Shown here: positions 5,175 to 55,886 of the stretch, in pieces
How positions within the stretch are numbered: the stretch's first letter is position 1
How the letters are laid out: the number at the start of each line of letters is the position of its first letter
Translations under genes and position numbers: made by a program
Notes under the pieces: model-generated
Databases searched by the model: none
What the model was told of the DNA's origin: nothing
Seen by the model: only the letters and a program-made list of their open reading frames with translations
DNA from: Selaginella moellendorffii
Taxonomy: Eukaryota > Plantae > Lycopodiophyta
Direction of reading: 5' to 3'
Assembly (NCBI RefSeq): GCF_000143415.4
Contig: NW_003314264.1
Location: forward strand, 1,807,710 to 1,871,709
Length of the DNA stretch: 64,000 bases

Positions 5175-5822
5175 CCTTGCAGAAATTCCTCCACTAGATC
5201 TCGCGCGTTCGCTAGGTTCTCCTCCGGTTCCCATATTGCCTCGCAGTGTGGAAATCCTTTCCACTTCACATGGAACTCTCTCACCTCGCGTCCTTATCGC
5301 TTGCTCTTGCGCGTATTGAGGATGGCCTCGACTTCGTATTCCTCTTCCCCTTGGATAACCTCAGGTAAAGGTCTTACTTGGTCCTTGCGAAGTGGATCCT
5401 CAAAGTACGGCTTGAGTAAGTTCACATGGAACACTGGGTGTATCTTCCCCATCTCTCGAGGAAGTCGGAGTCGGTAAGCCACTTTACCGATTCGTGCCTC
5501 AATCTTGTAAGGCCCCGCGAACCTGCTTAAGGAACTCAAGATCAATTCATTTGCAGGAATACATGCATTTTTACCTTTGGGTCAACTTTCGGCTGATCCC
5601 ACTTGGTAGCCTGAGGTTCTTGGTGTTCAGCCACACCTTCTCCCCAGCTTGGAACTCCACGTCCCGGCGCTTCTGGTTCGCGTACTTGGTTTGCCTTTGT
5701 TGAGCCCGTTCCAAGGAATCCCTCACTAGATTCCAAATGTTGAGTCTTTTCGCCGTGAATGCCTCCACCGCAGGTAGCTCTCCATGATACTCGGCCACGC
5801 CGAGTTCCACAGGACCTTCAAT
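5175..5822 (-). pseudogene. pol: Integrase C-terminus and chromodomain of G
   Basis: AQQRQTKYANQKRRDVEFQAGEKVWL; RFAGPYKIEARIGKVAYRLRLP...IHPVFHVNLLKPY; EEEYEVEAIL...*...VKWKGF...WEPEENL. Contains a frameshift and a stop. Confidence 0.9.
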
Positions 5823-6382: not shown

Positions 6383-7206
6383 TTAATGAATCTCACTTTG
6401 AACCCGGGTTATGAATGCTCTTGCTGCATCTCTTGCATGGTCTGGCAAGGTGATGGTGGCACTCTGCTTCCGCATCCAACCATGCACAACATTATCCACC
6501 GATATGCTCATACTGGGATCCCTTGGATTCAGCACCCATCTCTTTTCTAGGCAATCCTTCGTATATCCGAAACTTGGCTTGAACCACTCCACAGTTACAT
6601 TGAAGGAGTTAGTTTCCGCGTCCTCCTCTGCATCAGTGATGCAGCGCCCCACCCATATCATTTGTTTTTTATTACTGGGTTTGACAAGCACGACCATTCC
6701 TTTGCAAACCTGTACTGGATTGAATGCTGAATCCGGCTTCTTGTTCCTCGGCCCACAATAGTGATCCTCAACATCATTATCTGTCACTGCATTTCCAGAG
6801 GACATTGTTCCACTACTATTTGGTGCTCTGGGTTCTAGCCAAAAGGACTCTTCCAATTCTTCATATACAACCGGCCCATTTTGGATAGCAGATATAATCT
6901 TCTCCCAGTATTCGAGCAAAGGCTTGCACCTCTTAAAATAGGATTCTCCACCAAACACCAACCCCCTCTTCCAGAAGGCAATATGCTGTCTAATCCCGGC
7001 AACTATACTTTCCTGGTCTTTGAGTCCATCCGGGTGCATCGGCTGTGGGGAACCTTGAGGAATCATAGGTTCCCCAGTTATGGGATCTCTCTTGAAGAGT
7101 TTAATGCCGTCCACTGGCAGCCACACTGTGTCCCATTCTCTCATCTTGTACCTCATCACTGGAGCACCGTCACGCATGCTGAAATGAAACTGAAGAGGCT
7201 TGGAGT
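6383..7206 (-). pseudogene. Transposase of copy A, C-terminal piece (BAH/Tudor-like tail)
   Basis: Continues in frame from 20532 once copy B and one GAGT are removed (ETLIGH|SKPLQFHFSMRDG, as in copy C). Confidence 0.9.
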
Positions 7207-7648
7207 AAGCTCTATTTCGTTAAAGTGGGAATTGTCATTATCCCACTTGTAAAATAAGGTTTCCAAACCTTTATATAGTATATAAATATAACAAAATTCA
7301 ACTGCATTGAGGCACATGCCATTTTATTTTAAACAAGGAAATGTCTACTCAATCACTTCTCCTCCCCCTGCCACTGCTTCACCTCTCTCTTCTCCTTGTC
7401 ATCGTCGTCCAATTTCTTTCCATCCTTTTAATATTGGCTCAATTGCTCCGAGTCTAGGTGGAGCCCAAGTCCCCATTCAATCTTTACTTTCCCCTTATTA
7501 ATAAAACAACTTCGTAGACTTCCAATAACATGCTGTAACACTTCTAGTATAATGCAAATCCTCTCAAAGAATTGTCTTTTAATATTAATACAATGGCATG
7601 GAACCCCATGCCATAATAAGTTACATTTTTAAATAAATACATGCCATC

Positions 7649-10600
7649 TCAGACTGTTATTTTTTGCCTCCAACGCCTATACAATAATCTTGGAATTTCA
7701 TCACTCTCCACACTATCAGGATTTAAACCCAATAGTAATGCCATCTCTTCTCTAATACGTCCACACTCATGTTCAGTGGTCGAAGAACCCATCCGGTTGA
7801 GCAGATTATGGAGATGCGGATAGTGCTTGGCTAGACAATATACATGCCATAAATGATGACTGGTGTCTGTCCGATCAAATGGCTTCTGATATACCGTTCC
7901 ATCTGCCATTTGGTTGATTTCTGCAGCCACCTCCTGGACTGGCCGGTTCTCTATCACCATCGCTCCAAGCCGTTTTGCAAGGTCCCCCAGAACATACGGT
8001 TTCTTCTCCCTAGTTTCCATACTGCAAGAGATGGGGTGCACTGCATATGTGTGCGTGTTCGCTGCAGTTTTAATCGGCGAGTCATCGATGATGAGGATTT
8101 CACTTGAGCTAGCAGTCCGGTTCATCACTACAGCCTCTGGCTTGACGAAGATGGGCTTGCTACCCCTCACATGGACCATAGTCAAGCAATCCTCCTGCGT
8201 TAGGAGAAAGTCAAATGGTAATATTACTCGCGTCTGATCGTGCATCATCTGTAGCAACGTTAATGCATTGTGGCGCATCATGGATGTCCAAACTCCCAAT
8301 TGCAAATTGAACCCGGCCCTCTGTTTTAAGTGTCGCATGGTCATTATTAGATCCTGCAGTTTCTCCCGTGTGATTAATGTGAATCTGTCTCTTTTGACCA
8401 ACTTGCGACCGAAGGCTTTGGAGGGTGCAATGACATTCGAGGACGAGCCACGCTCATGGGAGAAAAGGACACCGTTCAGATCAAAAACGATACAGTACCT
8501 TCGCCGTGACTCTGAAATGAAATGCGTCAGCATAAAAAATGGTACAAGTCAATTTTACCATCTACAATATTAGCGAATGTTGCTCCCGATGGTCGTTGAG
8601 AGGGTTTTGGTCGAGGAAACGTGAAGGGCGGAAATACTCTCCTCTGCAATGTGGGGTCAATCGCATCCGATGGCGTGTGGGCACATGCCATTTCAGCTGT
8701 AGACTCTGGTACAACTGGCTCAACAGTGGCATGGGGTGGTTCCGATGGCGTGTGATCACACGCCATTTCAGCTGGTGCCTCCGTTGGCAAAGTGGACATG
8801 ACCGAACAGGCAGTAGGGGCGGTGTAGGGAGGTTCCAACGGCGCGTAGTCAGACGATTGGGCATACGTTGAGTCCGTTGGAAATGAGGATACGACCGGCT
8901 CGGCGGCTGGGGCGGCCTCATGTGGGTCCAATGGCGCCTGGTCACCGTCAGTTGGATACGTGGACAAGATTGACGCAGTGGTATGGGCAGCATCAAGTGG
9001 AGCGTGGTCAGCTTGCTTGGCATTGATATGGATAGTAGCCTCCACCAGCTCTGATGACTCTTGCAGCCAAGTAGAGTCCACTGGCGGATCCATATGCATG
9101 TCCAAATATCTCCCTTCGATTGAGATGGTATCCTCCCGTGCTACTAAAAACAAACTCATTAGCACATTGAATCGACTATACTGTATTTACCATCAACTGC
9201 TATTGAGGAACTAGGACCGATATCACTTGAGCGCACTGCTGATTCTGAAGGATTGGACATACGTTTCGACCCTTGCTTGGCACTATCCTTCCTCAACACT
9301 AAAGGCTAGAGTTTGTAAATTCAACTGAATAATCTCTACTTACCATTTACTCTGCGACCTACATGGACAATTTTAGAAATGGTAAAAGGTTAGGAATGAA
9401 TGTATTATTATTTACCTGATGGTTTGTCTTGTATGACCTTCCTCCGCCGCTCTTTGGCCACCTCAGGCTGGCCATCGTCGTCATCATCGTCGTCGTCGTT
9501 ATTGTGATCGTCACCATTGTGAGGACCATCCAAGTCCTCTTCGTCCTCCTCTTCTTCGTCCTCCTCTTCTTTGTCCTCCTCTTCGTCCTTCTGCTCTTCC
9601 TGCTCATTATCTTTCTCTGGCTCCTCATCCCCCTCCTGCATTTCTTCCATAGGCTGCTCAGGCTGGATGGCTTGTTCTTCCAGGACCATCTTGGGAAAAT
9701 CATCTGGCCGAGTCTCCATCTCAAAATATAAGACATCCATAGCTTGTTTTAGTGCGTGACCTAGGACCGTATCCTCACCCGACTGTCTTAACATGGTTTC
9801 TGCACGTTCTTGCACCCTTCGAAGACGACGAGATGAGAAAAACGTGGCCCTGCCTTGAAAAGCTTCCCTCATCCATTGTACCTCTCCATTGAGATTGGGG
9901 AAGGGGAGTCCGCCATAGGAATCTGAGTCATGAGGTGGTGACTGCCTGCTTTCACTCAGCCCTTGATCTGCAATGAATGGCATGAGCACACACGCCATAA
10001 CCGCAAGGCATTACCTATCATCTTTTCGTTGCCCTTCTTCCTTTTCGAATCAAACGCCTCTGATCTCGACGACTGTCCAACGTGCTTTCGCTTTTTATGA
10101 CCACTGTCAGTTTGAGCTTGGCTGGTGCTTGCCTGTTTTGCCTTTGAAGAAGTTTCTCCTGCAAGGAATGGCATGAGACCACACGCCATTGCAAATATAA
10201 TTTGTACCTCCTTTTTTCCTATTGCTTTTCTGTTTGTCCTTCTTCGATGCGCCACCAGTGCGCTTTTCAGTCCTCGTGTCTGAATATTCACAACGATCTA
10301 TAATCAAAATGGCGTGAGGCCTCACGTGACCTTACCTTGTGCAGGTTGTGAGCTCGGCCCAACATGGGTATCTTCAACAGTAGCTGTTAACGCCGTTTCA
10401 GCATCTGGGGGTGGCCACGCTCCTGCATACAGAGCTTGTGAGATAACATTTAAACTTAAAGTGCGTACTCACCAGGTTCGCAGAGAAGATACTGTTTTTC
10501 TTTGGCAACTGTAATTATATGCTCCATTGAAGTCACCTCTTCAATGGAGTTTGTCACTGCAACACATAGGACACCCTTGAGTAGTGCGGCTCGAAAGAAT

Positions 10601-12948
10601 AGTCTGCCGCAGTTGTACTCGACAATGCATTTGCCCTTGGAGTCGGAAGCAGGTGACCCACCCGCTATTGCGTTGAAGACCCAGCTGAGCATTTCCCATG
10701 CTGCACCTGGAGCTTTCTTTGGATTCGAAAGCTCCATAGCCGTCTTCAGTTCCTCAGGCACAGGTAAATTGACCTCCCTCAGATCAATTCGATTGGCCTT
10801 GTCGAACGAAGCTGGGAAGTCACTCCAGTCCCACTCTGCTGCAGGACCAATAACAAGGGCGAGTGTGAAGATGCGGACATTCGTCGGTATCTTCTTCTTA
10901 GCCATTATCCCATGGATCTCCCGCATCTCCTTGCCTTTCAACCGAGCCTTCACCTCGTTCAAGGCCTTCCAGAACTTGTGATAGGATTCGGAGTCGTAGA
11001 TCATATAGTGGACTGAAGATTCCACCTCCGCAAGTCCCACCATTAAGTCAATGATGGAGCTGACTTCGTCTGCATGAGTGATCTCCTCGTTTGTGAAGTC
11101 CATCACACAAAAGATGTTCTTGACTTGCTCTTCTCCGCGGGAAACGATGCTCCTCCACCTTTGATCCTCATCCGAATTCAAGTATACCCGGTAAGGTTCT
11201 CGATAGGCCTCTGCTGCGGGGTCGAGCTGTTTCTGAAGCCGGCGATCGACATCAATCTTAATGAAATTTGGATACTGATCCAACTTCTCAGCTTTACTTT
11301 TCGTGGCATCCCGCAGCAGATCGATGAACTTGGGGGCCCCCTTCACGTACTCGTCGATGTCTTCATTTGACAACTCCAGCGCTTCCATCATCTCTTGCGT
11401 GGTGTCGATTCTCACCCTCTCCACGGCCACTTGCTCGAAGATCCAATCCTTCAATAGCGCACGAGCTCTCAGAGTCGTGCACAAGTCCTCGTATGTCACA
11501 ATATGGCCGGGAGTCATTTTGGTCTTGTTGAAGACAACCTCACCACGTAGAAGAGCATTAGCCACTGTCAGAAGGTCGTCGTCGTCTAGAGACCGCGAGA
11601 AACGCAAGGCGTTGAGCTTCAAATCATTGGGCTTCCGGCCGTCCTCCACACCCATTGACTTTGGCAACTCCCCGTCATGGTACCTCCTCAGCACATCTAC
11701 CCATTTGTCAAAAACAACTTTTGTCGCGAGTAGAATGTTATGGATGCTGAGTGTGTCATTGACCCCCAGTGTTTTCGAGAGAAGACTCGAGAATTCCTGC
11801 AATGGAAATGGCGTGAGGCCACATGCTATGCCACATACAACGAGGCTTACCTGCCAGGCGCTAGTTGCTAGTGCACGTCCTTGTCCTGGTTTTTGTGGCT
11901 TCTTCAGTTGAACCCAGAGCTTCCGTGTTCGTGCCAATGTCTCGTGTAGACCCGATTTGTAGCACGTTTCTTGCTTGACATTCTGCGCGTGGGAGATGTA
12001 TATGATAGATCGGAGGGGCGAGTTGCCTTTTATCAGGCGGACAACTCTTGTCTTGAAGACTTTCTTCACCTCCTCGCCCACCATAATATCCACAACTATC
12101 TCTTGCATCGCCAAGCTAGAATGCTGCCCGGAGACGGCATAGAACCGGATGTTCTGATCGTCCAACACCTTCCTATTGATCAAGTCTGGAAACCTCATCT
12201 CGCCCTTCATTTTTTGGTAGTAGGGGATCACGTCTGCGATGTCGGGTGTTACTGGACTTGCCAGCATCTTCTGCTTCAATTTCTCCACCCACTCATCAGA
12301 TACTAGCCTGTGGTTGTATTTGCTTTGGATGTCGATACGGCTCACGTCGATTGTATATACTTTGTTGGAATAGTAACAAGTACTATTATCTGCGATGATT
12401 TTTGCTGCCTCTTCTTGCTCTTTCTGCTCTTTGCGGCTCTTCTTTTTGGTGGGTGTAGTGTTCGAACCCGAGGCAATGGCATCACTAAGTAGCTTCTTTT
12501 TTGGAGCAGGAGAGTCGGACGTCGGCTTGAGCTTGACCACCCTTTTCTGCTTCAAGGTAGTTTCCAGATCGACCCCCTTCCCCTTTGCTTCGCGAACTGG
12601 AGTCACTCTCAACGGCTCAATGTTGGAATATAGTTTTTGAACATCGCCGTAGGTGAGGTCCGTGGATTCCATGTGATCTTCATAGACCCGCAGCGTCTTT
12701 GAAATTGTGGGCCTCCTGGACAACCTCTCCCTAGCTCCCTCTAGGAATTCCTCATAGCCGCTGCCCCCCTCCGGGAAGCCGCTAGGATGTGCAAGGTGGA
12801 TCTTGAAGGCAGACGCTGTCTCTACCACAAGTGCCAGTCCATATTCTTGCATGGAACTGCATGGAGTGTCTGTCACTTGGATAAGGATCCCCATGCATTC
12901 TTTTCTCCCAGCATCTGTGTTGTACAGCCTCAGATCCTCGCCTTCCAT
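7649..12948 (-). CDS. Spliced cargo gene (~1615 aa): ParB/DGQHR-like + degenerate N4/N6 DNA-MTase fold + disordered linker + FCP1/NIF-like HAD phosphatase
   Basis: Exons 12948-11851, 11796-10473, 10422-10336, 10279-10208, 10158-10015, 9967-9416, 9358-9344, 9298-9191, 9143-8559, 8511-7649 sum to 4848 nt with no internal stop. Nine GT-AG introns of 45-57 nt. The start codon (first ATG, MEGED) is uncertain; the frame is open further upstream. Confidence 0.8.
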
Positions 12949-13491
12949 CCCGAAAGTCCAACTGGTGAGCTCCTCCCCCTTCTCTGCATCCACATTGACA
13001 GTGGCTGGAAGAAGAACGCAATTCCTCGCCTGTTCAGAAATGCACAACAATTAGAGCTGACAGATGAAAAGCTAGTAGCTGGAAATAACGTGAGGCCACA
13101 CGCCATTCACCACTGCATCAGATGTCTTGAGGCTGCATCCTAAGATGGCGTGAGGCTACACGCCATCTGTAACCGGACTGCACTCGAGAGCCCAATCGGT
13201 GCATGCCAATGTTGCTACTGAATGGCATGTGGCCTCATGCCATTTTCTACTTGGCCTAAAAGACTTACCATTTGAAGCCGAATGGAGGCGTGACAACCGG
13301 ACTCGCTGGCGAATGTGCACTGTGTGTGCAGCGGATCGTAGCAGCAAGGCTACTCTGCCACTTACAGTTGGAGAGTGGCGCTGAAATCTCCCGGGACGCC
13401 AAGTGGGCTGCGTGTGGGTGGCGGAGTGGGCGGCGGAGTTGGCGGCGAAGTTACAAACTGGGTGTGTCTTGAAGTGGACGCCGATGCACAC

Positions 13492-13682
13492 GAGCGCGAT
13501 GCGAGCGCGAGTGTGATGCAAGCGCGAGTGGACGCCGATGCACACGAGAAACCTGTAGAGAAGTGGGAGCGCAAGTGGGAGCGCGATGCGAGCGCGAGTG
13601 GGAGCGCGATGCGAGCGCGAGTGGGAGCGCGATGCGAGCGCGAGTGGGAGCGCGATGCGAGCGCGAGTGTGCGAGCGCGAGT
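13492..13682. repeat. CpG-rich 23-bp minisatellite (GAGCGCGATGCGAGCGCGAGTGG)
   Basis: About 4-5 tandem units at 13578-13682 plus a dispersed unit; largely collapsed in copy A (46400-46530). Confidence 0.85.
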
Positions 13683-14107
13683 ACGAAGCAAAATGCAAAA
13701 CCTAACCTCACACGCGCGAAATGTCACGACGGTTGGTAATCCCGTCACGTCATCATTTCTCGGACTTGGGCACTACCATTAATTTCTAGATCGGCACGCG
13801 CATGCGTGAAATCCAAAAGAAATCCGCAACGTCATCATTCCTCGGACTGCATGCACGCGAAATCCAAAAGAAAGATCATGATTGGGATATCATTTAATAC
13901 CCTCGCTATATTTATACCATGCATGATTGGATATTCCAAAGCATCTTGTATTTCCAAAAATGCCAGATGTTCAGCTAAATAAATTGTCAGAGGATGATGT
14001 TCAAGCATATGGGCTCATGCAATTTTGATCCCAAAAAATGCACCAAAAAATGCTCGGCGTCATCTGGCGTTATCTCTTGAATGGCGTGGGGCCGCATGCC
14101 ATTTTCA

Positions 14108-15965
14108 GGAGCACATAGGAGTATATTCCTAGAATATTCTGACACGCGCGAGATTGTTTTGAGTTTCCTGGAGATCCAACTGTTAGATCGCAACCATATT
14201 TTACAGAATGGTATACAATGTCCTTCTTGATGACCCTGCAAAGAAGCATCTCGATCGGACACCACATGAGACCACACGAGCCTTACAATGTTTCAGGGGC
14301 ATTTGCCATAGATCCGACCGTTATTTTGCTCCAAGATTCTACAGTTTGGTGTGCATTGACCTTTCCATCGACACTGCAAAGGGACATCACAATCAGATGC
14401 GGGATCACAAGAAACCAACTTCACTAACTCTGGTTTCACCAAGATCTACGTAAGGAGTTATGAAATGAAAGGACCCTCTCTATTGAAATGTGTTTATGGT
14501 CCTAGGGGCATTGTGACATATCCAAGGATTTTGCATCAAGTTCTGTATTTGCATGTTTATCAAGCTACTGAATTGCTAAACCCTAAACCCTAAACCCTAA
14601 ACATGTGGCAAATGCTGCGTGAAGAAAGATGCCCTTTCTGGGCAAATGCTGTAAGAGGCAGATGCCGAGCAAATGTATCTCAGGCTAGTGAAGGGGACAA
14701 ACGAAAGCTAGCAACCAAAGGAATGTAAGCAACCAAAGGAATGTAAGTAGGGCATGTGTTTGTAAGTTTAAAAATGCCTCAACCACTTAAATTTCCAAGT
14801 AAATAAAGCTGTTTCTATTTTTGGTACAGGTAAACTTTATAGCGTGTGGGCTCATGCAATTTTGAACCCAAAAATGCACCAAAAAATGCTCGACTAGCAT
14901 TATTCTTTGAATGGCGTGTGGCCTTATATTGCCATAAATGACACAGCATAATTATTCCTTTACACGGCGAATAATCTTGGAGCACATAAGAGTATATTCC
15001 TAGAATATTCTGACACGCGCGAGATTGTTTTGAGTTTGCTGGAGATCCAACCGTTAGATCGCAACCATATTTTACAGAATGGTATACAATGTCCTTCTTG
15101 ATGACCCTGCAAAGAAGCATCTCGATCGGACACCACATGAGACCACACGAGCCTTACAATGTTTCAGGGGCATTTGCCATAGATCCGACCGTTATTTTGC
15201 TCCAAGATTCTACAGTTTGGTGTGCATTGACCTTTCCATCGACACTGCAAAGGGACATCACAATCAGATGCGGGATCACAAGAAACCAACTTCACTAACT
15301 TTGGTTTCACCAAGATCTACGTAAGGAGTTATGAAATGAAAGGACCCTCTCTATTGAAATGTGTTTATGGTCCTAGGGGCATTGTGACATATTAAAGGAT
15401 TTTGCATCAAGTTCTGTATTTGCATGTTTATCAAGCTACTGAATTGCTAAACCCTAAACCCTAAACCCTAACCCTAAACATGTGGCAAATGCTGCGTGAA
15501 GAAAGATGCCCTTTCTGGGCAAATGCTGTAAGAGGCAGATTCCGAGCAGATGTATCTCAGGCCAGCGAAGGGGACAAACGAAAGCTAGCTATAAACATGA
15601 CGGGATGCAAATAGATTACTAGGCTGGTCCTGCGAAAATCAAAAACCATAATTGAAAACATTGAAAATGCAAAAAGAAAGGTTTATAATATTTTTGAATT
15701 TTAAGCAACCAAATGAATGTAAGTAGGGCATGTGTTTGTAAGTTTAAAAATGCCTCAACCACTTAAATTCCCAAGTAAATAAAGCTGTTTCTATTTTTGG
15801 TACAGGTAAACTTTATAGTGTGTGGGCTCATGCAATTTTGAACCCAAAAATGCACCAAAAAATGCTCGACTAGCATTATTCTTTGAATGGCGTGTGGCCT
15901 TATATTGCCATAAATGGACGTACACACACAGCATAATTATTCCTTTACATGGCGAATAATCTTGG
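14108..15965. repeat. ~0.9-kb tandem duplication in the intergenic region of copy B
   Basis: Units start at ~14109 and 14980 (offset 871; duplicated small ORFs at 14208 and 15079). Single copy in A (~44970-45950). Confidence 0.88.
14576..14602 (+). promoter_or_regulatory. Plant telomeric-repeat (telo-box) array (CCCTAAA)3-4
   Basis: ctaaaccctaaaccctaaaccctaaac; also at 15447-15479 and, as TTTAGGG, at 45456-45482. Confidence 0.85.
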
Positions 15966-16797
15966 CGCGGATCGCTGACGTGGCATAGCAAAGTTCGAAT
16001 CACTGACATGGCACAGCTGGATCGAGGCAAGGACATGATGTGACAAAGTTCAACCTCCGACAGCAAAGTCTAGAAGCTACTCAGTTTGAAATTTGTCAGA
16101 GGAATCATAAGATCTGGTTTGTCAGAGGATTTGATGTGACGTTCAAGCGTGTGTTATTTTTGAATTCTCGAACTCATTCCTAGGTCTATCATTTTTGTGC
16201 GCCGTGTTCTTGGTTCCGCTGAGCGTAGTGAGCGCTGCTTGTGTAAGCGGCGTTGTGAGCTGTGGTTTATGCGTCTACAAGCGGTTGTGGCATTGCGAGC
16301 GCCATTGCAAGCGGCAGTTTATGCGAGTGGCAGTTTGTGCGAGCGGCGCTACGAGCAGTTGCGGTGTTGCGAGCGGCGCTACGAGTAGTTGCGGTGTTGC
16401 GAGCGGCACTGTCTTTGGTGTGGCTACCGCTTCCTCTTGATATTCGGCACTTGTGCTTCCTGGTATGTTCACCATGGAATGGTTTAGGACCACATTTAGA
16501 AATGGCATGAGGCCACATGCCATCTTGGGCCCTTGCAATTTCATGGCTAGCGTATTGTCATGTATGTTTTTACTTGCCTGCAGCTGTGTGTGAGGCAATC
16601 TTCAAGAGGTTTGTCGAGACATGTAGCGAGCAGCAACCACATAAAACCTGCCTCTTGGAAGATGGAACACGAGACACCCAACGAGTTCTCCCTTCCATGT
16701 ATACCAAGGGGGCCATATTGGAAGATGTGAATCGGGAACTCTAGAGTAATGGCTACAGGAAGCTGAGCCAATCTAGATTTAGTAGATTGTGGAGCAA

Positions 16798-19700
16798 CAG
16801 GTTTACATTTTGAATGGTGGGAAGAGAGTTGCAAAAGGGACCCTTGTGTCTATGGATCGGAACTTTGTTATACATTGTCAAAGGCTTGGGGAAGGCAATG
16901 CTGCTGTATCAGTAGAGACTGTCTTCGATGGGAATGTGGTCGCTATTGAACGAGGAGAGATGGTCGTCGGGGTAAATGTTGTTGTTGCCTTGAAAAATCT
17001 TCAGAAGAAAGCAGATGTTGGGGACAGTGCAAGTGCGACGCATGTTCCCTCCGTGGATCTTAAGAACCGTGCTACATGGATTCAGGCAAAAGTGTTTCTA
17101 AACAACCCCGAGGGGGAGGTGGTAGCTGAGGGCTTAGCCACAGTTGTCGATCCAAGAGATGCGGTTGCTAATCAAGAATTGGGCTGGGATGATATTGGAG
17201 TTGCGATTTTAAAGGTTGTTGACACAGAAAAAAACAGTCTGACTANNNNNNNNNNNNNNNNNNNNNNNNNNNNNNNNNNNNNNNNNNNNNNNNNNNNNNN
17301 NNNNNNNNNNNNNNNNNNNNNNNNNNNNNNNNNNNNNNNNNNNNNNNNNNNNNNNNNNNNNNNNNNNNNNNNNNNNNNNNNNNNNNNNNNNNNNNNNNNN
17401 NNNNNNNNNNNNNNNNNNNNNNNNNNNNNNNNNNNNNNNNNNNNNNNNNNNNNNNNNNNNNNNNNNNNNNNNNNNNNNNNNNNNNNNNNNNNNNNNNNNN
17501 NNNNNNNNNNNNNNNNNNNNNNNNNNNNNNNNNNNNNNNNNNNNNNNNNNNNNNNNNNNNNNNNNNNNNNNNNNNNNNNNNNNNNNNNNNNNNNNNNNNN
17601 NNNNNNNNNNNNNNNNNNNNNNNNNNNNNNNNNNNNNNNNNNNNNNNNNNNNNNNNNNNNNNNNNNNNNNNNNNNNNNNNNNNNNNNNNNNNNNNNNNNN
17701 NNNNNNNNNNNNNNNNNNNNNNNNNNNNNNNNNNNNNNNNNNNNNNNNNNNNNNNNNNNNNNNNNNNNNNNNNNNNNNNNNNNNNNNNNNNNNNNNNNNN
17801 NNNNNNNNNNNNNNNNNNNNNNNNNNNNNNNNNNNNNNNNNNNNNNNNNNNNNNNNNNNNNNNNNNNNNNNNNNNNNNNNNNNNNNNNNNNNNNNNNNNN
17901 NNNNNNNNNNNNNNNNNNNNNNNNNNNNNNNNNNNNNNNNNNNNNNNNNNNNNNNNNNNNNNNNNNNNNNNNNNNNNNNNNNNNNNNNNNNNNNNNNNNN
18001 NNNNNNNNNNNNNNNNNNNNNNNNNNNNNNNNNNNNNNNNNNNNCAAAATGGCTTTGTCGAAGAATTCTTACAGCGCTCAAGAGCGAGAGACGTTGGTTA
18101 GAAGGCGGCTCGACCACAACATCGAGCAGAGAAGCTGCAGGACTGCATATTATCATAACAGGATTCTCTCCATGGAGAGACCTGACTCTTACCTCTGCAT
18201 CATCCACGACAAAATGGATCAGAAAAAGACGTGCTTACCTCGACTCAATCCTGCCCCCAAGGCAATCTCTTCATCCATGCAGCTGCCTGTGTCTCTATTT
18301 GGCATAATCGCTCATGGGCATGGTGCCCAGAACTATGGGAACTTCTTTGTACCTCTATGGGGTGGTGGGGGTGCAAACATGATGATTGCGTCCCTAGCAA
18401 AACACTTAAGGTCTCTGCAAAGTGCGCAGACTGAGCTGAACGGCCAACCCTTGCATAAGGCCCTTGTCGATCGAACCCCATACAGGGTTCAGCTGGAGGA
18501 GGAGCAAAGGCTTGCAGTATCGCGTGGGGCCCCATGCCATCCCAGTGAATATGTTGGCCGTCAGATTGTAGGGTTATCACGTGAGGCCTCATGCCATTCC
18601 GACGAGGCTGGTCGCCCGGTGAATGCACAGCCTCATCCAAACGAAGCAGAATCTCAAGGAAGTTCTTGCGGCCGATGTGGCCTTCCACCCCATCTTCTGC
18701 TCCAAACAGACAATGCTGGCAGTGAGAACAAAAACATGTACGTCTTCGCGTACTTGGCGATGCTTGTTGCCAAAGGCATATTTGAAACGGTTACACTTGG
18801 CTTTCTCATGGTTGGGCACACTCATGAAGACGTCGATGCCATGTTCAGTCACCTGGCAGAGTCCCTCCGGCGATCCAATGTCCTCACCCTCCCACAACTC
18901 TACGATGAATTCCAAAATTGCATCAAAGGCACTGTTGAAGCTGCACTTCTGACAGAGGTTCCAGACTTTAAGGGGTTTGTAAGAGGCTACATCAGGGACG
19001 AATCCGAAACGCTGATTGGCCACTCCAAGCCTCTTCAGTTTCATTTTAGCATGCGTGACGGTGCTCCAGTGATGAGGTACAAGATGAGAGAATAGGACAC
19101 AGTGTGGCTGCCAGTGGACGGCATTGAACTCTTCAAGAGAGATTCCATAACTGGGGAACCTATGATTCCTCAGGGTTCCCCACGGCCGATGCACCCGGAT
19201 GGACTCAAAGACCAGGAAAGTATAGTGGCCGGGATTAGACAGCATATTGCCTTCTGGAAGAGGGGGTTGGTGTTTGGTGGAGAATCCTATTTTAAGAGGT
19301 GCAAGCCTTTGCTCGAATACTGGGAGAAGATTATATCTGCTATCCAAAATGGGCCGGTTGTATATGAAGAATTGGAAGAGTCCTTTTGGCCAGAACCCAG
19401 AGCACCAGATAGTAGCGGAACAATGTCCTCTGGAAATGCAGTGACAGATAACGATGTTGAGGATCACTATTGTGGGCCGAGGAACAAGAAGCCGGATTCA
19501 GCATTCAATCCAGTACAAGTCTGCAAAGGAATGGTCGTGCTTGTCAGACCCAGTAATAAAAAACAAATGATATGGGTGGGGCGCTGCATCACTGATGCAG
19601 AGGAGGACGCGGAAACTAACTCCTTCAATGTAACTGTGGAGTGGTTCAAGCCAAGTTCCGGATATACGAAGGATTGCCTAGAAAAGAGATGGGTGCTGAA

Positions 19701-19915
19701 TCCAAGGGATCCCAGCATGAGCATATCGGTGGATAATGTTGTGCATGGTTGGATGCGGAAGCAGAGTGCCACCATCACCTTGCCAGACCATGCAAGAGAT
19801 GCAGCAAAAGCATTCATAACCCGGGTTCAAGGTGAGATTTAATATTCCTTTACTAAGTTTCTAATGTATTTTATTTCAAGGTGAACAATCCGAATCTGAA
19901 TCAGAGGAGGCGTGA
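16798..19915 (+). pseudogene. Sola1-like DDD transposase of copy B
   Basis: IIHDKMDQ, LLLQTDNAGSENKN, FLMVGHTHEDVDAMFS motifs. TGG>TAG stop at 19093-19095; start region replaced. Probable terminal intron 19832-19880 adds GEQSESESEEA*. Confidence 0.88.
17246..18044. other. Run of 799 N inside the transposase
   Basis: Length equals the corresponding interval in copy A (22311-21513). Confidence 0.95.
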
Positions 19916-20531
19916 TGGCATGTGGCCCTTTGCACTAGTATATCTTAATACTGGTCTGAGAAATAGAATGGCATGTGCCCTCAGGCCTTTTACTAAATCA
20001 CCTTTGAAAGAAATGCAAGCCTCTATGTCGTAAAAAAAAGGTACTAGAGAAATTCCTTAATAATATGAATGTTATTTAGTTTCATGAAAATACACTAAGG
20101 GTCAAATGAGTTAAATGACTTCTCCAGACTAGCAATGCCTCTTGCTACACCTTCACAATTAGATTCGTTAGAAAAAGATAACATTGAATAATATCTAAAT
20201 GTTCTCACCATTAAGTTATATGTCTGGCTAATAGGAATGACGTTCATCTTGGAAAGCTCACCACACGCTCAATGAACAAACAAATAGTGTGTGCGCGCAT
20301 GCCATCGCTCTTCTTTAGCTTCAGATTCGGCTTGTTCACCTTGACAATGAGATTTATTATACAACCAGATGGACTCAGTCTGGACACAAAGTCACCGCGC
20401 TAGTCACCATGCCCCAGATATGTCTAGCCCCTGAACAAAAAACATATAATTTCACGTCATTTTCAAATACTTGAAAATTTGTGCCTAGTCCCATTTTACT
20501 GAATAAATCCCACTTTAACGAAATAGAGCTT

Positions 20532-22356
20532 GAGTGGCCAATCAGCGTTTCGGATCCGTCCCTGATGTAGCCTCTTACAAACTCCTTAAAGTCTGAAACC
20601 TCTGTCACAAGTGCAGCTTCAACAGTGCCTTTGATGCAATTTTGGAATTCATCGTAGAGTTGTGGGAGGGTGAGGACATTGGATTGCCGGAGGGACTCTG
20701 CCAGGTGACTAAACATGGCATCGACGTCTTCATGAGTGTGCCCAACCATGAGAAAGCCAAGTGTAACCGTTTCAAATATGCCTTTGGCAACAAGCATCGC
20801 CAAGTACGCGAAGACGTACATGTTTTTGTTCTCACTGCCAGCATTGTCTGTTTGGAGCAGAAGATGGGGTGGAAGGCCACATCGGCCGCAAGAACTTCCT
20901 TGAGATTCTGCTTCGTTTGGATGAGGCTGTGCATTCACCGGGTGACCAGCCTCATCGGAATGGCATGAGGCCTCACATGATAACCCTACAATCTGACGGC
21001 CAACATATTCACTGGGATGGCATGGGGCCCCACGCGATATTGCAAGCCTTTGCTCCTCCTCCAGCTGAACCCTGTATGGGGTTCGATCGACAAGGGTCTT
21101 ATGCAAGGGTTGGCCGTTCAGCTCAGTCTGCGCACTTTGCAGAGACCTTAAGTGTTTTGCTAGGGACGCAATCATCATGTTTGCACCCCCGCCACCCCAT
21201 AGAGGTACAAAGAAGTTCCCATAGTTCTGGGCACCATGCTTATGAGCGATTATGCCAAACAGAGACACAGGCAGCTGCATGGATGAAGAGATTGCCTTGG
21301 GGGCAGGATTGAGTCGAGGTAAGCACGTCTTTTTCTGGTCCATTTTGTCGTGGATGATGCAGAGGTAAGAGTCAGGTCTCTCCATGGAGAGAATCTTGTT
21401 ATGATAATATGCAGTCCTGCAGCTTCTCTGCTCGATGTTGTGGTCGAGCCGCCTTCTAACCAACGTCTCTCGCTCTTGAGCGCTGTAAGAATTCTTCGAC
21501 AAAGCCATTTTGATAGCAGTGCACTCGTCACACTTTGAAAAGCTGGAGTACTTTCCTATACTCACATCCCTGAACCTGTTGCTCCACAATCTACTAAATC
21601 TAGATTGGCTCAGCTTCCTGTAGCCATTACTCTGGAGTTCCCGATTCACATCTTCCAATATGGCCCCCTTGGTATACATGGAAGGGAGAACTCGTTGGGT
21701 GTCTCGTGTTCCATCTTCCAAGAGGCAGGTTTTATGTGGTTGCTGCTCGCTACATGTCTCGACAAACCTCTTGAAGATTGCCTCTCCATATACAACATGA
21801 CCCCTGGTTTTGTGCGTACCGTCGTTCCCATGGATTGCCTGTTGAACCCTTTGTTCTTCGAACTCAGTTTTGATTCTGTAGAATGTGGTTCGAGGGACTC
21901 CATAAATGATTCTCCATGCCTTCATGCAGACCAAACCCCTCTGGAAGACCATGCCCCCCACCTGATGTTCTGAAGCATCAACAGATGACCGTAATGCCTC
22001 ATACACAAAATTGCGAGCTGCCTTCCAGGACAATGTCTTGTATCTTGCTCTCTCCTCTTCAATAGCATCCCAATCAGCATGTTGACAGCACCTCCTCTTG
22101 CAACAAGCAACTGTCAAGACCATTCGAACCTCCATCGCCATTTTCTGCCTTTTTGGTTCGTTGCTCAGATCCCTTTGGCTGTGCTTTAGGAAGGTGTACA
22201 TTCTTTTCCCATGAAGAGATGTTCTGTCATCAATTGTAGTGGTGTTTGATTGTGAATCCTTCACATTCTCAAACACTAAGTGCCTCAATTTCCACCGCAC
22301 AATGCTTCCAATAGTCAGACTGTTTTCTTCTGTGTCAACAACCTCTAAAATCGTAA
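20532..22356 (-). pseudogene. Transposase of copy A, central catalytic piece
   Basis: Open frame with Cys motifs (CCKRRCC, VCMKAW, FSKCDEC) and the three acidic catalytic motifs; bounded by two insertions. Confidence 0.92.
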
Positions 22357-47079: not shown

Positions 47080-50000
47080 ATGGAAGGCGAGGATCTAAGG
47101 CTGTACAACACAGATGGTGGGAGAAAAGAATGCATGGGGATCCTCATCCAAGTGACAGACACTCCATGCAGTTCCATGCAAGAATATGGACTGGCACTTG
47201 TGGTAGAGACAGCGTCCGCCTTCAAGATCCACCTTGCACATCCTAGCGGCTTCCCGGAGGGGGGCAGCGGCTATGAGGAATTCCTAGAGGGAGCTAGGGA
47301 GAGGTTGTCTAGGAGGCCCACAATTGTGACATACGAGGACTTATGCACAACTCTGAGAGCTCGTGCGCTATTGAAGGATTGGATCTTCGAGCAAGTGGCC
47401 GTGGAGAGGGTGAGCATCGACACCACGCAAGAGATGATGGAAGCGCTGGATTTGTCAAATGAAGACATCGACGAGTACGTGAAGGGGGCCCCCAAGTTCA
47501 TCGATCTGCTGCGGGATGCCACGAAAAGTAAAGCTGAGAAGTTGGATCAGTATACAAATTTCATTAAGATTGATGTCGACCACCGGCTTCAGAAACAGCT
47601 CGACCCCGCAGCAGAGGCCTATCGAGAACCTTACCGGGTATACTTGAATTCGGATGAGGATCAAAGGTGGAGGAGCATCGTTTCCTGCGGAGATGAGCAG
47701 GTCAAGAACATCTTTTGTGTGATGGACTTCACAAACGAGGAGATCACTCATGCAGACGAAGTCAGCTCCATCATTGACTTAATGGTGGGACTTGCAGAGG
47801 TGGAATCTTCAGTCCACTATATGATCTATGACTCCGAATCCTATCACAAGTTCTGGAAGGCCTTGAACGAGGTGAAGGCTTGGTTGAAAGGCAAGGAGAT
47901 GTGAGAGATCCATGGGATAATGGCTAAGAAGAAGATACCGACGAATGTCCGCATCTTCACACTCGCCCTTGTTATTGGTCCTGCAGCAAAGTGGGACTGG
48001 AGTGACTTCCCATCTTCGTTCCACAAGGCCGATCGAATTGATCTGAGGGAGGTCAATTTACCCGTGCCTGAGGAACTGAAGACGGCTATGGAGCTTTCGA
48101 ATCCAAAGAAAGCTCCAGGTGCAGCATGGGAAATGCTCAGCTGGGTCTTCAACGCAATAGCGGGTGGGTCACCTGCTTCCGACTCCAAGGGCAAATGCGT
48201 TGTCGAGTACAACTGCGACGGACTATTCTTTTGAGCCGCACTACTCAAGGTTGTCCCGTGTGTTGCGGTGACAAACTCCATTGAAGAGGTGACTTCAATG
48301 GAGCATATAATTACAGTTGCCAAAGAAAAATAGTATCTTCTTTGCGAACCTGGTGAGTACGCACTTTAAGTTTAAATGTTATCTCACAAGCTCTGTATGC
48401 AGGAGCGTGGCCACCCCCAGATGCTGAAACGGCGTTAACAGCTACTGTTGAAGATACCCATGTTGGGCCAAGCTCACAACCTGCACAAGGTAAGGTCACG
48501 TGAGGCCTCACGCCATTTTGATTATAGATCGTTGTGAATATTCAGACACGAGGACTGAAAAGTGCACTGGTGGCACGTCGAAGAAGGACAAACAGACAAG
48601 CAATAGGAAAAAAGGAGGTACAAATTATATTTGCAATGGCATGTGGTCTCATGCCATTCCTTGCAGGAGACACTTCTTCAAAGGCAAAACAGGCAAGCAC
48701 CAGCCAAGCTCAAACTGACAGTGGTCATAAAAAGCGAAAGCACGTTGGACAGTCGTCGGGATCAAAGGCGTTTGATTCGAAAAGGAAAAAGGGCAACGAA
48801 AAAATAATAGGTAATGCCTCGCGGTTATGGCGTGTGTGCTCATGCCATTCATTGCAGATCAAGGGCTGAGTGAAAGCAGGCAGTCACCACCTCCTGACTC
48901 AGATTCCTATGGCGGACTGCCCTTCCCCAATCTCAATGGAGAGGTACAATGGATGAGGGATGCTTTTCAAGTCAGGGCCACGTTTTTCTCATCTCGTCGT
49001 CTTCGAAGGGTGCAAGAACGTGCAGAAACCATGTTAAGACAGTCGGGTGAGGATGCGGTCCTAGGTCATGCACTAAAACAGGCTATGGATGTCTTGTATT
49101 TTGAGATGGAGACTCGGCCAGATGATTTTCCCAAGATGGTCCTGGAAGAACAAGCCATCCAGCTTGAGCAGCCTATGGAAGAAATGCAGGAGGGGGATGA
49201 GGAGCCAGAGAAAGATAATGAGCAGGAAGAGCAGAAGGACAAAGAGGAGGACAAAGAAGAAGAGGACGAAGAAGAGGAGGACGAAGAGGACTTGGATGGT
49301 CCTCACAATGGTGACGATCACAATAACGACGACAACGATGATGACGATGATGGCTAGCCTGAGGTGGCCAAAGAGCAGCAGAGGAAGGTCATACAAGATA
49401 AACCATCAGGTAAATAATAGTACATCCATTCCTAACCTTTTACCATTTCTAACATTGTCGATGTAGGTCGCAGAGCAAATGGTAAGTAGAGATTATTCAG
49501 TTGAATTTACAAACTCTAGCCTTTAGTGTCGAGGAAGGATAGTGCCAAGCAAGGGTCGAAACGTATGTCCAATCCTTCAGAATCAGCAGTGCGCCCAAGT
49601 GATATCGGTCCTAGTTCCTCAATAGCAGTTGATGGTAAATACAGTATAGTCGATTCAATGTGCTAATGAGTTTGTTTTTAGTAGCACGGGAGGATACTAT
49701 CTCAATCGAAGGGAGATATTTGGACATGCATATAGATCCGCCAGTGGACTCTACTTGCCTACAAGAGTCATCAGAGCTGGTGGAGGCTACTATCCATATC
49801 AACGCCAAGCAAGCTGACCACACTCCACTTGATGCTGCCCATACCACTGCGTCAATCTTGTCCACGTATCCAACTGACGGTGACCAGGCGCCATTGGACC
49901 CGCATGAGGCCGCCCCAGCCACCGAGCCGGTCGTATCCTCATTTCCAACGGACTCAACATGTGCCCAATCGTCTGACTATGCGCCGTTGGAACCTCCCTA

Positions 50001-52322: not shown

Positions 52323-52451
52323 GTCACCATGCCCCATATATGTCTAGCCCCTGGACAAAAAACATATAATTTCATGTCATTTTCAAATACTTGAAAATTT
52401 GTACCTAGTCCCATTTTACTGAATAAATCCCACTTTAACGAAATAGAGCTT
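52323..52451 (+). mobile_element. Detached terminal 129 bp of Sola-like copy A with TIR
   Basis: Matches 20403-20531; TIR 52428-52451; TSD CATG at 52452-52455. Confidence 0.93.
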
Positions 52452-54920
52452 CATGACACTCTTCTAAGGCTACCTTCCTTAGTTCCCCTTCTGGAACATA
52501 CACCCTCGTTTGCTTGTAATAGATGCTTCTGTGGTGTTCCGCATAGCCCGTTTTCTCTGCCGTTGGCAGCTCACCTCTCTGGTGAGCTTCCCGTGCCTCT
52601 AGATTCCTCAGCAACACTTCTTGTGCTAGACCATCGTTCTCATATGCTGCCGCACATCATCCCAGAAGGTTGTTGTTGTGCTGGATATTGCCAACCTCAA
52701 GCTCGCTTTTCGACTTAGCGCATCCACCACGATGTTGCTCTTCCTAGGCTTGTATAGAATCTCGCAATCAAACTCGGCCAAGGCATTAGCCCACCGACCT
52801 TGTTTCCCTCTCAGGTTGGGCTGTGACAAGAAGTGTTTCGTTGCCACATTGTCCATGTAAACCTTGAAGTGTCTCCCAAGGTAGTGTCGCCACTCCTTGA
52901 GCGCTTTGACCACCGCAAACAATTCCTTCTCGTGGGCAGGCCACTTCCGTTGAGCCTTGTCCAACTTCTTCGAGAAGAACGCTACCGGATGGTATTCTTG
53001 CTTCAAAACTGCGCCCAACGCAAAGTCTGAAGCATCCGTTTCTACCTCAAAGTCCTTACCAAAGTCTGGTAATGCCAATACGGGAGCCTTCCTCAACTTC
53101 CCTTTGAGGTGGACGAATGCCGCCTCGCATTCCGCTGTCCATACCATCTTCCCTTTTCCTGTTTGGTCCGTTAAGGGTAGGGCCACTCTCGAATAGTGTC
53201 TGATAAACTTTCAATAGTAGTTGCATAGCCCCAAGAATGCCCTCAACTCGTGTACATTCGATGGTCGCTCCCATTCCTGGATCGCTTGGACCTTCTCCGG
53301 GTCCACCTTGAGCCCGTCCTGGCCCACCACATGCCTGAGAAACTTTACCTCTTATTGAGCAAAGTCACATTTGCTCTCTTTAGCATACAGTTTGTGTTCC
53401 CTTAGTTTCTCAAACACCTTCGCCAAGTGTTCGGCATGCTCCTTTAGCGTCTCGCTATAGATCAGGATGTCGTCGATATAGACGACCACGAAATGATCCA
53501 GATAGGGTACAAAGATGTGGTTCATCAGCGCCGAAAACGTTGCCGGCACATTGCATAGCCCGAAGGGCATCACCAGAAACTCAAAGCTCCCATACCTAGT
53601 TTGACAGGTTGTCTTCTCGACATCTTCCTCTGCTACCCTGATCTGGTAGTATCCTGAGCTTAGGTCAATCCTCGAGAAATATTTTGCCTTTCCCAACGTA
53701 TCGAACAGGTCCTCAATCCTGGGCAAAGGGTACTTGTTCTTCTTTGTATACTTGTTGAGCAACCGGTAGTCTATGCACATGCGCATAGATCCATCTTTCT
53801 TTTTCACAAATAACACGGCGCCCCATACGGCGACTTGCTCAACCTAACATACCCTTTGTCCACCAACTCCTCTAGTTGGCATTTGAGCTCCTCGAGTTCT
53901 TTCTCTTTCAAACGATAGGGGGGACGAACCACCGCCTCAGCACCCTTGACCAGCTCAATCTTATGTTCTATCGGTTGTGCGGGGGCAACCCCACCGGTAA
54001 CTCCTCCGGCATGGTATCCTGGAATTGGTCCAACACCCATTGGATCACTAAAGGTACTTGTTCTGTTCCTGTCTTTTTGTCACTGTTCACCGAGAGTAAG
54101 CACAAAAATACTACCTTAGTTCCTTTAGTGAGTTGTCTTCTCGTGAACACCAGGTTTAAGCAAGATTCTTTGGCCTTGCTTTGCCCTACCTTTAGATCCT
54201 GGGCCTCCACCCTGGATCTTCTTCCTTGGGCATTCGCCAGTACCACAAGGTTTCTACCTTGTTCATGCAGGGCTACCATGAACCGATTGAACCAGTCCAT
54301 TCCGAAGATCACGTCAAATCCCACCATGTCTAACACGGTGAAATCCATGTCCACTTTCCATGTCCCTACTTCGACTCTCGCTTGTCGAAGTACCTCATTG
54401 GTGCTTTGGCTACCTTGAACAAACTCTATAGTCCTTGGTTTGCCCAGTTGCTGCACCATTAGTCCGGCTTGCCGGACTATGTCTGCAGCCACAAAATTAT
54501 CCGAAGCACCCGTGTCAATAAGGATCTTAACAAAGCTACCTTCGAGCTTCCCCCGGAGGGCTAGTAGATGTCGCGAATGACTCTCTACCAAAGTTGCTCG
54601 TGTAATGAGTAACTTTGAGTTAGGGACTGGATCACATACCTCAGTTTGGACTTCACCCGACTTGATGGCCATATTGGCTCTGGCCTTCTTCGGGTAGGGA
54701 CATTCCCTCGAAAAGTGTCCCGCTTCACCACAGTTGTAGCATACGTTGTTTCCCACGCTGCTATACGACTTGACCTTCTTATTCGTGGGTTTGTCTCTTT
54801 TCGCTTGACACCCCCATTTACTCGCTCGCTGGCCACCGGATTTGCCTTTCCGGAACCCCGAGGACTCATTCTTAGAGAAACTCTTCTTGAATTTCCCTCT
54901 GCTAAATGTTCCCCTTGGCG
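52452..54920 (-). pseudogene. pol: G gag zinc knuckle, protease, RT and RNase H
   Basis: CYNCGEAGHFSREC; ILIDTGAS; RMCIDYR...VMPFGL...VVYIDDILI; VETDASDFALGAVL...EKEL. Frameshifts and stops present. Confidence 0.95.
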
Positions 54921-54968
54921 GAGCCTTTTCCTCAGTTCTAGCGAAGGATAGAGGCGGATTGCTGGGAG

Positions 54969-55886
54969 ATGGCAAAGGCAGTGCATAAGCGAACCCAGGC
55001 GGAGACGGAACCTTCGCCAGAGCTGGAGCCTCCGGTCGAACAAGAGGCTATGGATGAGGAATCCTTGCATGAGGAGGACTCCAGTGAGGAAACTTCCAAA
55101 CAGGAGTCCAGTGGCGAGGTTTGGTCGTCCAAGGCTCAATTGGACGTTTTAGAAGGACAATTGGCGCAAACCAATGCCCTACTAGAGACTCTCGTACGCA
55201 AGCTAAAGCGTGACGAAAAGCGGAAGAAAAAGCGAAAGACTGCAGATGCTAGCAGCGCAGAAGGTGCGGACCCTTCGGCAGGGACTGAGGCAAAACCAAA
55301 CAAGGTCGAACAGACCGAAGTGGAATCAGTCCCTCAGGCAGTTCCCAAGTACAAACCAAAGCCCCCACCGGTCTTCAAGGGAGTGAACGACTATAAGGTG
55401 GTGGAGGATTGGTTTTACGATATAGAGGACTACTTCCGAGCGTTGTGATTACCGAGCTCGGAGAAGGTCCCATATGCAAAACCATACTTGGCAGATAATG
55501 CCAAGTCTTAGTGGAGAACGACAGAGGCCAACGAAGGACCGATGGCCACTTGGGAAATGATGAAGGCGAGGATCCGCGCAACTTACGTTCCTCCAAATGC
55601 TACCCTGCATCTAAGGGACAAGCTAAGTAGGCTGAAGCAGACCAGAACCATTCAGGAGTATGTGAATGGGTTTATGGCAAAGAGGATACTTGTCACGGAC
55701 ATGGGGGATATGGATGCGTTCCATGCCTTCATATCAGGTTTGCAAACCTAGGCTCGCGGTGAAGTGATGCGGTGGAACCCGACCAACTACAAGGAAGAGT
55801 TGGATGTGGCCATCAAGGTGCATTTCAATGATAACCTGCGAAAGGGGAACACGACATGGTCGGGATCCACGTTTAGCAAAGGGGCC
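54969..55886 (+). pseudogene. gag: G gag capsid region (inverted relative to pol)
   Basis: KPKPPPVFKG...VEDWFYDIEDYF; TWEMMKARIRATYVP...LRDKLSRLKQTRTIQEYVNGF; in-frame stops. Confidence 0.88.

Follow-up and report, generated by a model that had tools for sequence, protein, structure and literature searches.

We analysed a stretch of 64,000 nucleotides from the lycophyte Selaginella moellendorffii (assembly GCF_000143415.4, contig NW_003314264.1, positions 1,807,710 to 1,871,709 of the forward strand), hereafter the window, which contains a complete DNA transposon of 13.3 kb (7207..20531) that we describe as Sola1-like. An accessory gene on the reverse strand of this element carries an open reading frame of 864 amino acids (aa) at 10456..13050(-). 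Three parts were distinguished in its product: a ParB/Noc-type N-terminal domain with the motif SGQHS (aa 224-362, 11965..12381(-)), a helical region at the place where ParB and Noc carry their helix-turn-helix DNA-binding domain (aa 363-527, 11470..11964(-)), and a domain with the predicted fold of a beta-class amino-methyltransferase and eroded catalytic motifs (aa 618-855, 10486..11199(-)). The last assignment comes from an AlphaFold2 model built on a family alignment (A6), from structure searches with VIA, and from a family profile. The first-pass annotation of this DNA, made from the letters alone, had flagged the methyltransferase-like stretch, corresponding to aa 619-854, and lacked the ParB region and the transposon context, both of which were found here.

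The motif-like peptides quoted in that annotation are all present in the 864-aa frame and follow each other in the order given there: YRVYLNSD (aa 620, 11170-11193), VMDFTN (aa 649, 11089-11106), SSVHYMIYD (aa 678), NPKKAP (aa 776), IVEYNCG (aa 809, 10606-10626) and LCVAVT (aa 828), all on the reverse strand. The proposed pairing of NPKKAP with HPTQKP is plausible, as a helix comes next (aa 782-796), although MAFFT placed NPKKAP in a different register. In Pfam and NCBIfam scans of the window protein alone, neither a methylase nor a ParB match was obtained, and its score against a profile built from Riccia proteins only was -0.4 bits. Its methylase resemblance is not significant from its own sequence and becomes significant through relatives and structure. 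A total of 22 matches were obtained in a full HMMER search with the window protein over 1.84 billion representatives; three of them were dropped as repeat artefacts (P0003, P0007, P0012), and a 95-aa fragment (P0020) was kept out of the alignments. The named relatives belong to Selaginella moellendorffii, Riccia sorocarpa and Calypogeia fissa. A word-index search with the same query found no relatives among 7,995 candidates, and alignment A2 contained a single relative, a member of the window protein's own cluster.

The Riccia cluster member P0041 spans the whole architecture and matches N6_N4_Mtase (E 5.8e-4) and NIF (E 1.9e-5). A search with its C-terminal domain collected 47 Riccia sorocarpa proteins, 33 of which match N6_N4_Mtase at E<=0.02, all below the 26.7-bit gathering score of PF01555. 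The profile of the relatives finds M.RsrI from HPTQKP to the motif I region with E 7e-6, or 2.7e-5 with a larger alignment. In a profile comparison, aa 803-842 of the window protein fall on the motif I region of the relatives with a score of 33.7, the maximum in 60 shuffles being 23.5, and the same segment matches a Selaginella protein with E 1.6e-4. The domains upstream are collinear with those of the relatives at 17-30% identity. The methyltransferase-like domain keeps its collinear position in Selaginella moellendorffii, Riccia and further plant proteins with an identity of about 15-20%, and no long homologue shown departs from this domain order. An Atlas search of aa 610-864 returned leads all below 0.9, with N6_N4_Mtase clusters at 0.80 and 0.79. 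In a quick tree of 22 rows, the window protein groups with the Selaginella moellendorffii protein (SH-aLRT 92); the branches are long, and this grouping is taken as a hint only. The nearest named homologue (P0024-P0026, Selaginella moellendorffii) is represented by gene models of 379-451 aa comprising only the helical and methyltransferase-like parts, and may be a split gene model or a copy retained by the host. Scans of metagenome loci confirmed none of 103 pattern matches. The sole locus confirmed among 30 with P0030 (L001) was rejected as a chance bacterial glycosyltransferase locus.

Structural comparison was based on an AlphaFold2 model of aa 222-864, computed with the 43 rows of alignment A6 and searched with VIA against 48,161 PDB representatives. 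In this model (mean pLDDT 72.7, with lower values for the C-terminal domain), strands are formed at aa 620-624, 645-651, 679-684, 807-812 and 828-833. D651 of DFTN closes its strand in the manner of the DPPY aspartate, and EYNCG comes after the strand 807-812, like motif I. The model thus displays the permuted Rossmann fold of the beta-class methyltransferases (PF01555), with motif IV ahead of motif I. The best VIA matches to aa 618-855 (model residues 397-634) are beta-class amino-methyltransferases with Z from 6.8 to 8.8. M1.HpyAVI reaches Z 8.4 with a root-mean-square deviation (rmsd) of 4.0 over 169 residues, accompanied by MboIIA (8.1), CcrM (8.0), TTHA0409 (7.9), PvuII (7.5), EcoP15I Mod (7.4), MTA1 (7.3), RsrI (7.0) and the bdelloid N4CMT (6.8), and the best unrelated fold stands at Z 5.5. 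Residues 618-855 are accordingly modelled as a degenerate beta-class amino-methyltransferase fold, which agrees with the N6_N4_Mtase fold proposed at first pass. The Z values of N6A and N4C enzymes differ by no more than about 1, and the fold cannot separate the two ancestries; the kept Asp of motif IV and the RsrI match lean to a DPPY/N6A ancestor.

The erosion of the catalytic motifs is real. At the motif IV position (11089..11100(-)), DFTN stands in place of DPPY, and it is identical in all three sampled copies, namely the complete element, the second copy in the window and a contig of run X2; the loss is therefore not a decay of this copy. The pattern [DNSE]PP[YFWH] is absent from all 64 family proteins, so that the loss is lineage-wide: both prolines and the aromatic residue are gone from every one of them, and motif IV elsewhere in the family reads DLTH, DVTH, DSAN, DSTN, DANS, DATT, DLRR or DFAR. 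Of the 43 rows, 28 cover the Asp position and 27 of these retain the residue; the other 15 have gaps or fragments there. At the motif I position (10606..10626(-)), IVEYNCG followed by R816 replaces LDPFxGSG. Binding of S-adenosylmethionine (SAM) in these enzymes is associated with an FxGxG loop and an acidic residue after the following strand, and the window protein has neither, its motif II strand lacking the acidic end (LCVAVTNS). The domain thus stands outside the active beta-class enzyme family and is correctly recognised as a degenerate fold. In the land-plant branch it is likely to be catalytically inactive, as judged from these motifs, in agreement with what the first-pass annotation had expected. 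It is nevertheless still constrained, since 41 Riccia domains share 82 columns with an invariance of at least 95%, although these domains are related transposon copies.

The same motifs bear on a different explanation, in which the protein is a working methyltransferase with a non-canonical site, or a METTL14-like inactive half that acts with an intact ParB-methyltransferase of a sister family. The nearly invariant Asp of motif IV would suit such a role, as would motif I, which keeps an acidic residue and glycines in relatives (LDFFSGG in 36 of 48 Riccia proteins) and in the two other copies, where G replaces R816 to give EYNCGG. Inactive partner methyltransferase domains are also known, according to the account in PMC4738411. 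Against it stand the loss of the prolines and the aromatic residue throughout the family, the SPPY to APPA substitution reported to abolish the activity of the bdelloid N4CMT (PMC8885841), and the motif II strand without its acidic end. Moreover, no intact methylase open reading frame was seen in the element, 799 N of which are unreadable. We consider this explanation unlikely.

The N-terminal part was assigned from the same model. Residues 224-527 match ParB, Noc, KorB and PadC with VIA Z of 8.4-11.1; Caulobacter ParB gives Z 10.6 and rmsd 2.4 over 98 residues. Longer alignments extend into the helical region, with 206-208 residues of pNOB8 ParB aligned to model residues 1-306 and 203 residues of KorB, and Noc reaches a TM(target) of 0.53. 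Phage ParB proteins are the top matches in the viral structure library, and the Atlas lead for the N-terminal domain is ParB_N at 0.92. The G and H of SGQHS are invariant in 15 of 15 rows. A ParB N-terminal fold followed by a helical domain of DNA-binding type, the combination of the ParB/Noc clamps, is thus predicted, and this ParB-plus-helical region, upstream of the methyltransferase-like part, is likely to be the DNA-binding part of the protein. The first-pass annotation had read the methyltransferase-like stretch as an inactive module that binds DNA or reads modified bases: its inactivity is supported, the role of a base reader is backed by no test, and DNA binding probably resides upstream. 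The Atlas neighbours of the ParB-like domain (window 12118-12132) include fungal DUF3723 and sponge and mollusc clusters with scores of 0.95-0.96, so that domains of this kind may have a wide distribution among eukaryotes.

The accessory gene is predicted to be spliced (9408..13050(-)) and to encode about 1,080-1,130 aa depending on the choice of start, with the order ParB, helical region, dead methyltransferase, basic linker and acidic tail. Only 12 of 320 combinations of GT-AG splice sites are open to the stop at 9408, all of them with four short downstream introns (10423-10472, 10298-10335, 10159-10207 and 9968-10014, reverse strand), the last three of which each hold a copy of the palindrome described below. 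A further in-frame intron of 54 nt with GT..AG ends and a palindrome is predicted at 11797..11850(-), where the homologues shown have a gap of 18-19 residues.

This palindrome, ATGGCRTG-N6-CAYGCCAT, is 22 bp long and occurs at 36 sites in the window with at most 2 mismatches, the chance mean being 0.02. All 36 sites fall in element copies, which make up 26,631 bp, and the remaining 37,369 bp contain none; at 3 mismatches, another six lie inside element copies and three outside. The complete copy has 19 dispersed palindromes with at most 3 mismatches (7301..20305): a cluster of three lies upstream of the ParB gene (13085-13243), four fall in the predicted introns of this gene, and the rest include sites close to the ends, in intergenic repeats and within two open reading frames. 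In these two frames, the transposase (18519-18597) and a 212-aa frame (8670-8766), the palindromes come in pairs that translate to repeated peptides and may be unrecognised introns. Both CG and TG are met with at the R and Y positions, in keeping with CpG decay. Transitions in the copies affect 45 of 354 CG sites, 25 of 341 CHG sites and 21 of 1336 CHH sites, and this bias to CG and CHG suggests that the host has methylated the copies. The palindrome is likely to be the binding site of the ParB-type protein, and is regarded as a candidate for it.

We propose, with a probability of roughly 0.5, that the protein serves self-recognition (anti-silencing) and does so without catalysis; it would bind the palindrome of its own element and help to keep the element expressed. 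An ancestral fusion of ParB and methyltransferase, of prokaryotic origin and carried by Sola1-like elements as in Ectocarpus, would have lost catalysis in the land-plant branch, where the domain would persist as a folded scaffold with a likely role in dimerisation or DNA contact. ParB proteins have a C-terminal dimerisation domain, and the dead methyltransferase occupies the corresponding place. The helical domain associated with ParB would then allow a dimer to read the two-fold palindrome. The protein would coat the element, which is likely because the sites span introns, upstream regions and genes and not just the ends, and together with its acidic tail and an FCP1-like phosphatase encoded next to it would counter host silencing, as VANC does for VANDAL, a Mutator-type element.

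The distribution of the sites may also be read in another way. The same palindrome-binding protein could serve the mechanics of transposition or autorepression, by compaction, by pairing of the ends or by a KorB-like repression of the divergent promoters. The best structural matches of the N-terminal part are indeed ParB, Noc and KorB, sites are found near both ends (7301 and 20284) as well as in the cluster upstream of the gene itself, and an element of 13 kb may need help in pairing its ends. Yet the 19 sites lie for the most part away from the ends, within introns and genes, and a function in transcription would be suggested by the acidic tail and by the FCP1-like gene conserved next door. 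This mechanical or autorepressive role is the strongest of the alternatives, though we regard it as rather doubtful.

Several observations weigh against the anti-silencing factor. The arginine patch of ParB, GxxRxxA, is not found, a motif of the SGQHS type standing there across the family. The methyltransferase fold call depends on the family alignment: a model from the single sequence reached a pLDDT of only 41.4, and a VIA search of it listed no methylase, although a model of such low confidence was regarded as uninformative. Even in the aligned model the methyltransferase-like domain has middling confidence (blocks of 32-80), and Foldseek gave no match of this model in the PDB at E<=0.001, a check suggested at first pass that contrasts with the VIA result. 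The kept Asp of motif IV could mean residual chemistry or a contact with a base. The sole available copy pair has a pN/pS of 0.77 in the domain, which is near-neutral, and three stops in the older copy. Finally, any anti-silencing is likely not to have lasted, given the probable methylation of the copies by the host. Some of these points would also suit a C-terminal region that is a decaying relic or has no methylase fold at all, the model having copied the fold of the relatives through a forced alignment: the window protein has no direct profile match, its single-sequence model fails, and pN/pS is 0.77 in the one copy pair. However, the frame is uninterrupted over its 864 codons, and neither a stop nor an indel occurs at this place in the run X2 contig. 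The motif I region beats all 60 shuffles and is supported by the Selaginella match, and the domain order is collinear. A relic or an artefact is regarded as highly improbable.

The design of a ParB-methylase accessory gene is already published. The element Sola1-1_Ec32 of the brown alga Ectocarpus, as described in PMC12477816, has an accessory gene with a ParB-like domain and an N4C/N6A methyltransferase, proposed to act on the element's own sequence, and this was the sole source joining ParB, a DNA methyltransferase and a Sola transposon in our literature searches. According to that description, it is likewise a large DNA transposon with a 4-bp target site duplication and termini starting with AA, and carries ParB and N6/N4 methylase in one gene on the strand opposite to the transposase, as was found here; its protein has 1,104 aa, compared with about 1,100 aa predicted for the product here. 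It differs in that its methylase is predicted to make N4-methylcytosine (4mC) or N6-methyladenine (6mA), whereas the catalytic motif is lost family-wide in the land plants, and in its imperfect terminal inverted repeat of 282 bp, the repeat here being perfect and 24 bp long. Palindromes are not mentioned in the main text of that paper, an FCP1-like gene was not noticed in its account of the element, and the two elements are compared by description only. This accessory gene is a closer comparison than the host-domesticated N4C enzymes, the bdelloid N4CMT and Marchantia DN4MT1; the first-pass annotation had pointed to bacterial-derived N4C enzymes in a few eukaryotes. The predicted fold, the permuted order and the catalytic position ahead of the SAM loop are shared with M1.HpyAVI, M.MboIIA, CcrM, M.PvuII, M.RsrI, the bdelloid N4CMT (PMC8885841) and Marchantia DN4MT1 (bioRxiv 10.1101/2021.02.12.428880), as far as these are described there. 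Unlike them, the window protein has no (D/S)PPY, has an eroded FxGxG, shows 5-11% identity in structural alignment, and is a transposon gene fused to ParB and not a host enzyme.

For the Plavaka accessory genes PAG2/PAG3 of Bostrychia, a transposon-encoded ParB-like protein (PAG3) is reported beside inverted-repeat units that it was proposed to bind, with a PF01555 domain in the same element (bioRxiv 10.1101/2025.02.11.637652). By the same source's account, the transposase there is of the EnSpm/Plavaka type, ParB is fused to a 2-oxoglutarate oxygenase and the methylase to SET, and the repeats form tandem arrays, whereas dispersed or intronic single sites are found here. Methylases fused to ParB-HTH (helix-turn-helix) in chlorophytes and inactive methylase domains in DIRS1 elements have been noted (PMC4738411). 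The predicted N-terminal fold with its helical domain and the dispersed two-fold palindrome resemble bacterial ParB, Noc and KorB with parS-type sites, from which the present gene differs by GQHS in place of the arginine patch, by the lack of any ParA seen, by its eukaryotic host and predicted introns, and by the dead methylase that follows. VANDAL elements of Arabidopsis also encode a sequence-specific protein, VANC, acting on motifs accumulated in the own element (PMC5735166); the activity of VANC is experimentally established in that source, that of the present protein is proposed, and the analogy is one of function without a claim of homology.

New in this study are the conserved pseudo-enzyme branch in land plants, the intronic palindromes and the FCP1-like partner gene. 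The inactive land-plant branch was not found described in literature searches, whose scope did not extend to Iyer et al. 2011 and Repbase, and these searches found nothing on DUF7869. Published ParB-methylase transposon genes have been read as self-methylating elements. The present family, which has moved recently and has lycophyte and liverwort homologues, retains ParB and the methylase fold without the catalytic motif, which suggests recognition of DNA and not marking as the core function. The family may represent a second route to transposon anti-silencing besides VANC, and direct tests could draw on a natural pair of active and dead versions and on a defined site of 22 bp. The finding is no evidence for 4mC or 6mA in this plant. 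As a broader speculation, land-plant Sola-like transposons may run a self-recognition of the ParB/parS type with sites in mini-introns, the conserved pseudo-enzyme being a reader, or METTL14-like partner, of a 6mA/4mC mark made by intact sister families and controlling, with the FCP1-like phosphatase, the chromatin and transcription of the element itself; in this complete form it seems quite unlikely.

The complete element is bounded by 24-bp perfect terminal inverted repeats, at 7207..7230(+) preceded by GAGT (7203-7206) and at 20508..20531(-) followed by GAGT (20532-20535). The 4-bp target site duplication and the inverted ends are those expected of Sola1, and the uninterrupted site in a third copy, which begins at 61751, has one GAGT. 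The element is inserted into an older copy of its own family, within the transposase gene, and since the copies are 97-99% identical over long stretches, the family has moved recently together with the ParB-methyltransferase gene. The older copy lacks 1.2 kb of this gene and holds a second methyltransferase-like domain with three premature stops at 47626..48339(+).

The transposase gene (16789..19842(+), PF25273, DUF7869, E 1.3e-43) is placed back to back with the accessory genes, on the opposite strand, and includes an N gap at 17246-18044. A premature stop is present at 19093-19095, where the copy at 62440-63993 reads W. Candidate Asp motifs are HDKMDQ, TDNAG and GHTHEDVD, which may correspond to the DDD triad of the Sola type, Pfam giving only the DUF7869 label. 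The name Sola1-like is derived from the target site duplication, the layout and these candidate motifs. On the reverse strand, downstream of the ParB gene, lie the 212-aa open reading frame (8527..9165(-)) with two palindromes in its repeated unit and the FCP1/NIF-like HAD phosphatase gene (7649..8533(-), PF03031, E 1.8e-6). NIF is also present in 30 of the 47 Riccia gene models carrying the methyltransferase-like domain, and by sequence match the phosphatase is a conserved neighbour of the ParB-methyltransferase gene.

Read data offered no test of expression. About 12% of runs X8 and X9 was read, giving 197 and 120 reads with none on the methyltransferase-like domain, and runs X10, X11 and X12 had no reads on 10100-11900. 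Nearly all X8 and X9 reads lie, partially, on 40 nt upstream of the ParB gene (13329-13368), and their flanks resemble the 3' end of the large-subunit rRNA. Rfam gave no match in 7000-21000.

Further repeats were observed in and around the element copies. Short arrays of CTAAACC, a repeat of the plant telomere type, occur at 14576-14602 and 15447-15479 within intergenic tandem units of about 870 bp in the element. The transposase of the older copy is interrupted by a 21-kb block (22354-43768) with long direct and inverted repeats and low-complexity G-rich units, and an isolated right element end of 129 bp (52323-52451) is separated by 0.7 kb from that copy's left end. A retrotransposon remnant with a zinc knuckle and an aspartyl protease was found at 53352-55139, and another, an integrase-end/chromodomain-like peptide, at 5294-5545.

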